From an uncultured Bdellovibrionales bacterium (GTDB lineage: Bacteria; Patescibacteriota; Minisyncoccia; Moranbacterales; GWC2-37-73), in NCBI GenBank assembly GCA_964609855.1, contig CAZSTB010000008.1:1-55242 (forward strand): a stretch of 55,242 bases of DNA, read 5' to 3'. Below the pieces are notes generated by a model. That model had not been told where the DNA came from, made no database searches, and was given only the letters and a program-made list of their open reading frames with translations. The position numbers and the translations under genes are program-made. Positions within the stretch are counted from its first letter, which is position 1, and each line of letters opens with the position of its first letter. This document shows, in pieces, positions 50,944 through 51,398 of the stretch.

Positions 50944-50976
50944 AAAAACCCCTGAACCTTCGTAAAGATTCAGGGG
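50944..50976 (-). terminator. Intrinsic terminator ending the RNA cluster
   Basis: CCCCTGAA...TTCAGGGG-TTTTT. Confidence 0.8.
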
Positions 50977-51109
50977 TGCTCAGTTGTTCTCTCTGGAAAT
51001 AAAGAGCACGTTTTCCAGAAATATCCCAGATGTTCCCTTGCTGACCGAGAATCGTCTTTGCAAGAGCCTAGCTGTCGTGAGCAATGTGGGAATCCGCTAG
51101 ACGACTTCC
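50976..51109 (-). ncRNA. Candidate pseudoknotted ncRNA
   Basis: By-eye pairings: AGTCGTCT/AGACGATT, TTCCC-TTGCT/AGCAA-GGGAA, TCTGGAAA/TTTCCAGA, GTGCTC/GAGCAC. Confidence 0.45.
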
Positions 51110-51136
51110 ATAACATACCTACAAACTGAAAACAAT

Positions 51137-51217
51137 TGGAGTACACAATGAGACTCGAACCCATGACCTCCTAACCGTGAAAGGGCTAGGCACTCTAACC
51201 AGCTGAGTTATGTGCAC
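51137..51217 (-). tRNA. Non-canonical tRNA, anticodon UUC (Glu), 7-bp anticodon stem, G3-U70, U73
   Basis: GTGCACA TA ACTC AGCTGGTTA GAGT G CCTAGCC CTTTCAC GGTTAGG AGGTC ATGGG TTCGAGT CTCAT TGTGTAC T CCA. Confidence 0.88.
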
Positions 51218-51237
51218 TCATTCAATCGTAATCAATT

Positions 51238-51333
51238 TGGAGGAAGCTCGAAGGATTGGCAGCAGTATAATCGAAAGCCTGGATTTACTACTCCAGTGTA
51301 CCACTACCACCAATTTTTACCTTCGAAGCTTCC
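51238..51333 (-). ncRNA. 96-nt long-hairpin RNA with an acceptor-like stem and U-CCA end
   Basis: GGAAGCT-T-CGAAGG/CCTTCG-AGCTTCC-T-CCA; inner 12-bp helix; CTGGA/TCCAG hairpin. Confidence 0.65.
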
Positions 51334-51398
51334 ATATAAAGAGCTTTAAATGCTTCAATATATTTGCATATTGCAGGGGTTTGGTCAAGTCTGCAATC

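Follow-up and report, generated by a model that had tools for sequence, protein, structure and literature searches.

The 55,242-nt contig CAZSTB010000008.1 (C8) of a patescibacterial genome assembly (GCA_964609855.1; 1.23 Mb in 38 contigs, 98.5% complete, approximately 38% G+C), which is taken whole and called the window here, carries an unusual and apparently unique pair of tRNA-like genes on its minus strand: unit 1, a 96-nt rod-shaped RNA with a CCA end, and unit 2, an 81-nt tRNA with a 7-bp anticodon stem, both of them tRNA-like RNAs of a non-canonical kind. They lie in a 533-nt gap without genes, between an isochorismatase-family gene (51908-51399) and an open reading frame (ORF) of 163 aa (50865-50374), where the flanking genes are also on the minus strand and nearby genes are closely spaced. 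We tentatively read the pair as functional tRNA mimics that do not decode and that would be cut from a transcript by the enzymes of tRNA processing. A first-pass annotation had gone further, proposing that a precursor resembling a tRNA operon yields three such mimics as an undescribed system. Units 1 and 2 are built in a way that fits this idea, since both have an acceptor-type helix followed by an unpaired N-CCA, which is the minimal layout for RNase P and for a CCA end, but a three-RNA system exceeds the evidence, and at present the locus is an oddity of a single population in a hypervariable cassette array.

Unit 2 (51217-51137, minus strand) starts after a 20-nt spacer downstream of unit 1 and is a tRNA, abnormal as had been noticed: it scores 46.1 bits against the Rfam tRNA family (RF00005, cut-off 29), and ARAGORN labels it Glu-UUC. 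All of its stems are paired, its loops are of the Asp or Val type, and on direct reading the nucleotides of the tertiary interactions are kept (U8, A14, G18G19, A21, Y48, here C48, G53-T54-Psi55-C56 and A58). With the genome's own tRNA-Asp(GUC) it has in common the D loop (AGCTGGTTA), the T loop (TTCGAGT), the variable loop (AGGTC) and the residues at positions 8-9 and 26, all of them identical, while each stem differs with 23 of 23 pairs preserved. The best-scoring relatives among 300 genomes of the order were tRNA-Asp and tRNA-Val, and the canonical bacterial tRNAs closest to unit 2 are the tRNA-Asp(GUC) and tRNA-Val of Patescibacteria, with which it shares the full cloverleaf and the GTTCGAGTC T arm. 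It departs from tRNA-Asp in the anticodon stem (7 bp against 5 bp) and the anticodon (UUC instead of GUC), in having G3:U70, U73 and all stems rewritten, and in lacking orthologues in relatives.

The anticodon stem (CCUAGCC/GGUUAGG) is perfectly paired over its 7 bp and carries the loop CUUUCAC (CU-UUC-AC), with UUC as the anticodon; the Rfam alignment assigns an 11-nt anticodon 'loop' to this arm, and the minimum-energy fold closes all seven pairs. Unit 2 therefore lacks an anticodon stem of 5 bp (or of 6 bp, as in Sec and Pyl) that would hold a 7-nt loop in decoding register. The D stem, the variable loop and the connectors all have normal lengths and nothing offsets the two extra base pairs, so that standard tRNA geometry would place the anticodon about two helical steps out of register with the acceptor end, which makes ribosomal decoding unlikely. 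Our literature searches returned no account of bacterial tRNAs with 7-bp anticodon stems. The UUC anticodon is moreover the sole tRNA-Glu feature of unit 2, in which the D arm reads ACTC-AGCTGGTTA-GAGT and the Glu-type body, with the GUCUAGNGGUUAGGAC-type D arm of the genome's tRNA-Glu genes, is absent. Canonical tRNA-Glu(UUC) and tRNA-Glu(CUC) genes are present on other contigs, so the unit 2 gene is supernumerary.

The acceptor stem of unit 2 contains G3:U70, a pair found elsewhere in the genome only in the two tRNA-Ala genes, together with U73 and an encoded CCA. An N-CCA is encoded in both units 1 and 2, compared with only 7 of the 35 other tRNA genes that ARAGORN finds. Alanyl-tRNA synthetase (AlaRS) does not require the anticodon, and tRNA-Ala and alanine minihelices are reportedly charged through G3:U70, as Hou and Schimmel are said to have found in 1988 and Francklyn and Schimmel in 1989. 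Like these molecules, unit 2 has G3:U70 in an acceptor stem of 7 bp that ends in single-stranded NCCA; it differs from tRNA-Ala by U73 in place of the A73 discriminator, U2:A71 in place of G2:C71 and a non-alanine anticodon, and its charging is a prediction from sequence.

When the whole 405-nt region was folded, the 20-nt spacer 5' of unit 2 paired with the trailer 3' of it (AAAUUGAUUACGAUUGA with UCCAAUUGUUUUCAGUUUG; 51113-51237, minus strand), so that the acceptor stem continues as a long helix of leader and trailer; this helix might act as a processing site or hide the CCA end of the precursor. A two-piece or novel transfer-messenger RNA (tmRNA) was considered for the locus and rejected, as the canonical tmRNA (127.5 bits) adjoins smpB at C13:2181-2592 and the locus has no match to the tmRNA family RF00023.

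Unit 1 (51333-51238, minus strand) was correctly described as a CCA-ending hairpin of 96 nt. Its G1 lies at 51333, 3 nt (TAT) past the word GCTCTTTA, and its end, U-CCA in the RNA, at 51238. Direct reading and folding give a rod of 31 bp. Its terminal helix of 13 bp is interrupted by a single bulged U; beyond an A-rich internal loop comes a second 13-bp helix, in which four pairs are G-U, and a tip of 5 bp closes with a loop of 8 nt. The U-CCA at the 3' end is single-stranded. The fold (-42 kcal/mol, z-score -6.2) was reached by none of 200 shuffles and is thus far beyond chance, and the complementary strand folds at only -28.9 kcal/mol because the four G-U pairs exist only in the minus-strand RNA. 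This asymmetry therefore favours a structure at the level of the minus-strand RNA over a DNA palindrome. The genome's own tRNA-Ser(UGA), which reads GGAAGCG...CGCTTCC-T-CCA (3' part CGCTTCCTCCA), has the same six outermost terminal pairs, the same discriminator U (U73) and the same encoded CCA.

In a permissive Rfam scan unit 1 had no match at E up to 10. Species 1 and 2 of the phage T4 tRNA cluster (rnaC/rnaD) and the RNase P-processed 4.5S RNA are small stable processed RNAs that invite comparison with unit 1, being likewise non-tRNA hairpins beside tRNA genes that mature via a tRNA-like acceptor helix, but they have no sequence or Rfam similarity to it, and unit 1 sits in a bacterial cassette rather than in a phage. 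An integron attC site was rejected as an identity for unit 1: no RYYYAAC or GTTRRRY core sites stand beside it, the genome has no second copy, and the other cassette junctions carry a different module, made of a terminator and a promoter. Unit 1 or the segment 3' of unit 2 as a broken or nested tRNA gene was rejected too, as short-word BLAST against the genome found no D- or T-arm fragments beyond chance.

These features suggest that the 533-nt intergenic region is a strain-specific non-coding transcription unit ending at the terminator at 50977-50941. As had been annotated, the cluster closes with an intrinsic terminator, which the terminator scan rated as strong and which consists of a 13-bp stem with six G-C pairs (50977-50948), a 4-nt loop and the T-run tail TTTTTATTT. 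The weak promoter put forward earlier does contain the word TTGACC (51388-51383), followed after 17 nt by TGcAAATAT as an extended -10 (the whole at 51388-51360, by direct reading), but it was missed by our consensus promoter scan, which instead gave a better candidate at 51992-51965, 5' of the isochorismatase gene. This candidate, TTGACT-16-TAGTAT with TG (9/12 matches), is the best sigma-70-type promoter of the cassette and sits inside an intergenic module of terminator and promoter that is also present in a genome of the same genus (G001). Transcription would start from this upstream cassette promoter, from the weak TTGACC promoter or from both, and the isochorismatase gene may be co-transcribed with the RNAs.

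From such a transcript, the ordinary tRNA-maturation machinery would probably release two stable RNAs, with RNase P cutting at G+1 and the encoded CCA being kept. The first would be a 96-nt rod whose 13-bp terminal helix and U-CCA copy the acceptor end of tRNA-Ser(UGA); the second would be an L-shaped tRNA whose body is of the Asp/Val type, with G3:U70 and with UUC as its anticodon on a 7-bp stem. Both might then be charged by synthetases that read only the acceptor stem, AlaRS in the case of unit 2 and possibly seryl-tRNA synthetase (SerRS) in that of unit 1, and would work off the ribosome, either as carriers or by decoying tRNA-binding proteins. We prefer this reading to one of junk sequence because the pairing is intact, the G-U pairs are strand-specific, the tertiary nucleotides are kept, CCA is encoded and a terminator is dedicated to the pair. 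If both RNAs are made and charged, they would be natural tRNA mimics that keep the acceptor-stem code while their geometry bars decoding (a 7-bp stem in one, an armless rod in the other), and would bear on the uses that cells and mobile elements make of aminoacyl-tRNA-like molecules outside translation.

One possible use for such molecules is as aminoacyl donors. Non-proteinogenic tRNAs, for example the staphylococcal tRNA-Gly isoacceptors, feed peptidoglycan transferases of the Fem/MurM type, and a FemAB-family protein is a possible user of aminoacyl-tRNA outside translation. A FemAB-family gene is present in this genome (C1:54345-55346) and keeps a donor role possible. The tRNAs that feed Fem proteins resemble unit 2 in being supernumerary and in having features that disfavour ribosomal use, but they keep a normal anticodon arm, and at this locus there is neither a Fem linkage nor conservation. 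It would be a long shot to go one step further and see here a mobile RNA cassette making two anticodon-independent aminoacyl carriers, a rod with a seryl end and an alanine-marked tRNA with its anticodon purposely shifted from the ribosomal register, which would provide a cell-wall transferase of the Fem/MurM type with Ser and Ala or absorb tRNA-targeting toxins and leave translation undisturbed. If true, the cassette would be a natural, genome-encoded counterpart of the laboratory minihelices.

The third member of the proposed system did not hold up. A segment beginning GGAAG at 51109 does follow unit 2 after a 27-nt spacer, but this supposedly pairing-rich stretch of about 135 nt (51109-50978, minus strand) folds like its shuffles: over 132-135 nt the z-scores are -0.68 and -0.81 for the two strands, and for its first 62 nt -0.15. 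We consider that it would be a mere 3' trailer of the RNA transcript leading into the terminator, or else the leader of the downstream ORFs. It contains an ORF of 48 codons (ATG at 51116), for which an AGG stands only 1 nt away, the gene at 50865 having GGAGG; translation of this ORF seems unlikely, given that it has no usable Shine-Dalgarno sequence. A permissive Rfam 15 cmscan of 50850-51450 returned only the tRNA and weak matches with E of at least 0.29, far below the gathering scores, four of which fall on the terminator region. Y RNA/YrlA, signal recognition particle (SRP) RNA, 6S RNA, T-box and other Rfam families, all considered as candidates, thus had no match above the gathering score in this interval.

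The short motifs that had been taken to link the units fared no better. Within the 411-nt region TATGGAAG and GCTCTTTAT are each present in two copies. Of the dinucleotide shuffles of this region, 19% contained three or more repeated 8-mers and 23% one or more repeated 9-mers, so that these repeats are at chance level; the T-CCA-A(A)TTG tails that units 1 and 2 share are short. The word GCTCTTTA (51344-51337, minus strand), which had been interpreted as the core of an rrn boxA, matches only partially. An rrn-type boxA would be a 12-13-mer like TGCTCTTTAACAA in the leader, and here there is only GCTCTTTA and then TATGG, with 8 of 13 consensus bases (the comparison is with the consensus, as the host's own rRNA leader is not in the assembly). 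The related 9-mers GCTCTTTAT and TGCTCTTTA have 15 genome copies each, and the likeness of GCTCTTTA to boxA is probably fortuitous.

Several results weigh against a function for units 1 and 2, the most important being that no relatives were found. A covariance model of unit 1 had no match in 300 genomes of the order and 400 of the phylum, and in the same genomes a model of unit 2 with its 7-bp stem recovered only ordinary 77-nt tRNAs, which scored at most 76.7 bits compared with 114.7 for unit 2 itself; the orthologues that a housekeeping tRNA would be expected to have in relatives were absent from all 700. BLAST of the whole locus in 60 relatives matched only the generic tRNA portion, whereas in a positive control BLAST of the same kind did recover a different odd tRNA-like gene from this genome (C21:372-509), present in 8 of 40 relatives. 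No DNA match to the locus was obtained in the phage (INPHARED) and plasmid (PLSDB) collections, exact-pattern scans of IMG/VR came back empty, those of species-representative genomes were also negative, and the odd anticodon-arm pattern had two matches in metagenome contigs, both by chance and with no tRNA nearby. Conserved order and structure with compensatory changes, on which the three-RNA system depended, were accordingly not seen, and no homologue with conserved structure turned up in any collection searched, an outcome that the first-pass annotation had itself named as refuting the system.

Other observations point the same way. Hairpins such as unit 1 are not rare, as 72 of 102,316 windows of 96 nt in the genome fold at -42 kcal/mol or better, and the frame GGAAGC...GCTTCC-N-CCA occurs twice more, by chance, in coding DNA, which weakens the significance of the Ser-type acceptor frame. 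The discriminator of unit 2 is U73 and not the A73 usual for tRNA-Ala, the FemAB gene is on another contig and unlinked to the RNA locus, and the neighbouring genes supply no functional link to the RNAs.

The only other copies of the locus are in two Logan contigs of 5-6 kb, from runs SRR446576 and SRR446577 of the same study, and are 100% identical to the window. Being identical in independent assemblies of separate runs, they indicate that the locus is no assembly artefact, yet they supply no variation. A phage or plasmid origin was rejected, with the DNA searches negative and the neighbours lacking PHROGs and PADLOC matches.

Comparison with G001 placed the RNAs in a cassette specific to this strain. 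The YceG/MltG orthologue of G001 is approximately 88-90% identical to window 48165-49172, and upstream of it the two genomes share only short intergenic modules. One of these (window 52045-51942, 89% identity to G001:C6) comprises a terminator hairpin, the TTGACT promoter and a leader; the other, on the right-hand side (49988-50026, minus strand, 85% identity), stands directly 5' of the YceG/MltG gene in G001 and so shows where the variable segment of the window (51941-50027) stops. In G001 approximately 600 nt lie between the modules, with small, unrelated ORFs and without a tRNA, a further point against functional mimics, whereas the variable segment of the window holds the isochorismatase gene, the RNAs and ORFs of 163 and 96 aa. 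Since only the flanking modules are shared, the RNA cluster belongs to a cassette of this strain within a hypervariable array. At the cassette junction immediately 5' of the gene for a 269-aa protein, a similar terminator hairpin is seen again. Near-identical intergenic modules separate cassettes whose genes differ between genomes of the same genus (49988-52045 and 54373-54506, compared with G001:C6 and with contig C28 of a second genome, G002), and they are made up of a terminator hairpin (GCGGTTAGGGAGATTCTCC...AACCGC, then a T-run), a TTGACT...TAGTAT promoter and a GAGAACTAATGG leader. From its sequence the array upstream of YceG looks like the product of cassette shuffling by recombination between these repeated regulatory modules.

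This setting bears on a possible explanation without any function, in which units 1 and 2 are neutral relics, namely a remodelled copy of the tRNA-Asp type whose stem has expanded by 4 nt and the end of a tRNA-Ser turned into a palindrome, recently acquired or rearranged and not yet decayed. The units are singletons in every collection searched and are missing from the syntenic slot of G001, their surroundings are ORFans, the third segment is unstructured, and the linking motifs are at chance level. Because the absence of conservation and the ORFan-cassette context fit relics as simply, we regard this explanation as nearly as likely as that of mimics. Neutral decay should leave some mismatches, yet 23 of 23 tRNA pairs and 31 of 31 rod pairs are intact, and all the nucleotides of tertiary interactions are kept although each stem differs from the closest tRNA type. 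The four strand-specific G-U pairs, the CCA encoded in both units and the dedicated strong terminator likewise speak against relics.

We consider it unlikely that the RNAs act in cis on the cassette mRNA, whether as RNase P 'punctuation', as 3'-end protection of the isochorismatase mRNA or through a trailer and terminator that attenuate read-through into the 163-aa and 96-aa ORFs. The RNAs are indeed flanked on both sides by coding parts of one strain-specific cassette, the better promoter does sit 5' of the isochorismatase gene, and the consensus scan listed no minus-strand promoter between the terminator and the start at 50865, leaving the two downstream ORFs without a recognisable one. However, no alternative antiterminator pairing stands out, the third segment has no significant fold, and other cassettes of the array make do with the simple repeated module of terminator and promoter, without tRNA-like elements. 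Moreover, a full tRNA body with identity marks exceeds what punctuation needs.

Also improbable, and slightly more so, is that unit 2 works as a decoder of GAA/GAG, either inserting Ala via G3:U70 as regulated mistranslation or inserting Glu, or that an expanded 11-nt loop (CCCUUUCACGG) serves unconventional decoding, with the hairpin of unit 1 as a processing or stability element. An intact tRNA body, a canonical CU-UUC-AC loop, an encoded CCA and a G3:U70 that is otherwise specific to tRNA-Ala in this genome speak for a working tRNA. Nevertheless, the 7-nt loop is closed by two C-G pairs, which will form and give the 7-bp stem, with no compensation elsewhere, and we know of no decoding tRNA with such a stem; tRNA-Sec and tRNA-Pyl have a 6-bp anticodon stem plus other adjustments. 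The Asp/Val-like body without tRNA-Glu D-arm features, the canonical tRNA-Glu genes elsewhere and the lack of conservation are further arguments against decoding. Finally, an RNA-only, addiction-like pair of unit 2, as an alanine-type tRNA mimic, with a private antisense RNA, which the combination of G3:U70 with a non-alanine anticodon-like arm, the patescibacterial host and the patchy distribution could suggest, is very improbable, as the search within 900 nt on each side found a longest Watson-Crick plus G-U run of 11-12 nt, equal to the shuffled null, which largely refutes it, and as unit 2 has U73 instead of A73 and no covariance-model relative in the 700 Patescibacteria genomes.

The genes around the mimics add little to their interpretation. 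The cysteine hydrolase annotated next to them is indeed one: the gene at 51908-51399 (minus strand, 169 aa) belongs to the isochorismatase family (PF00857, E 3e-17), and no RNA cluster lies downstream of its homologues (identity up to 54%) at their loci. The two ORFs 3' of the RNAs (50865-50084, minus strand), which are in the same cassette and absent from G001, encode the 163-aa ORFan (50865-50374), with no homologue besides itself among 5.8 billion proteins, and a 96-aa protein. The latter, described earlier as a Zn-ribbon protein, does have the CxxC...CxxC arrangement but only weak matches, so that this label is plausible. No defence-system or phage family was matched by any of the neighbours.

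For the 269-aa protein (49963-49154, minus strand), we abandoned the earlier label 'ART-like', which is unsupported because structure and profile searches were empty. Specifically, it had no Pfam match, a profile search against PDB sequences returned nothing, and the confident AlphaFold2 model of its N-terminal domain (block-mean pLDDT 88-98, residues 21-160) gave no PDB match at E <0.001 with Foldseek. The protein has two parts. The N-terminal one, of approximately 160 aa, belongs to a widespread Patescibacteria family that has no fixed neighbourhood, is common as a stand-alone 160-aa protein and has H-G-S, R48, Q49, D63, D75 and R80 as near-invariant residues. The C-terminal one, of approximately 100 aa, has a weak Imm1-like match (E 0.034). 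At this position G002 has the C-terminal part alone and G001 has no such gene, and no tRNA-like RNA was found at the loci of the protein's homologues. Homologues of a neighbouring protein occur in Uhrbacteria, Komeilibacteria, Falkowbacteria and other Parcubacteria, which marks the host as a patescibacterium (CPR). In the same array, an ORF of 111 aa (53268-53603, minus strand) has a weak match, below the curated cut-off (E 0.008), to the N4-acetylcytidine amidohydrolase YqfB, which has an ASCH-type RNA-binding fold.

Odd tRNA genes also occur away from the locus. Over the whole genome ARAGORN finds 36 tRNAs and Rfam 38, and neither finds tRNA-Gly or tRNA-Phe despite the estimated completeness of 98.5%; either these genes are in unassembled parts or odd tRNA-like genes substitute for them. 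A second odd gene in the window (22650-22726, minus strand) scores 31.2 bits with Rfam, just above the cut-off, and has an encoded CCA and an anticodon loop of 8 nt (GUUCAUUU, containing CAU), or of 6 nt if G-U closes; ARAGORN names no anticodon for it. The gene at C21:372-509 (plus strand), which is 138 nt long and scores 38.5 bits, has approximately 60 nt of extra structured arms between its D and T arms and is followed by a terminator; its relatives in 8 of 40 genomes, among them both genomes of the same genus, are 71-76% identical with the insert included. At C23:15707-15883 (minus strand), two unusual tRNA-like genes lie 3' of an apparent 16S rRNA 3' end at the contig edge (CACCTCCTTTCT), the first being a tRNA(CAU) with U37, an encoded TCCA and the trailer AAATCG, and the second a tRNA-like gene (42.9 bits) with an anticodon loop of 17-19 nt, after which comes a rod-like hairpin of approximately 115 nt with a U-tract.

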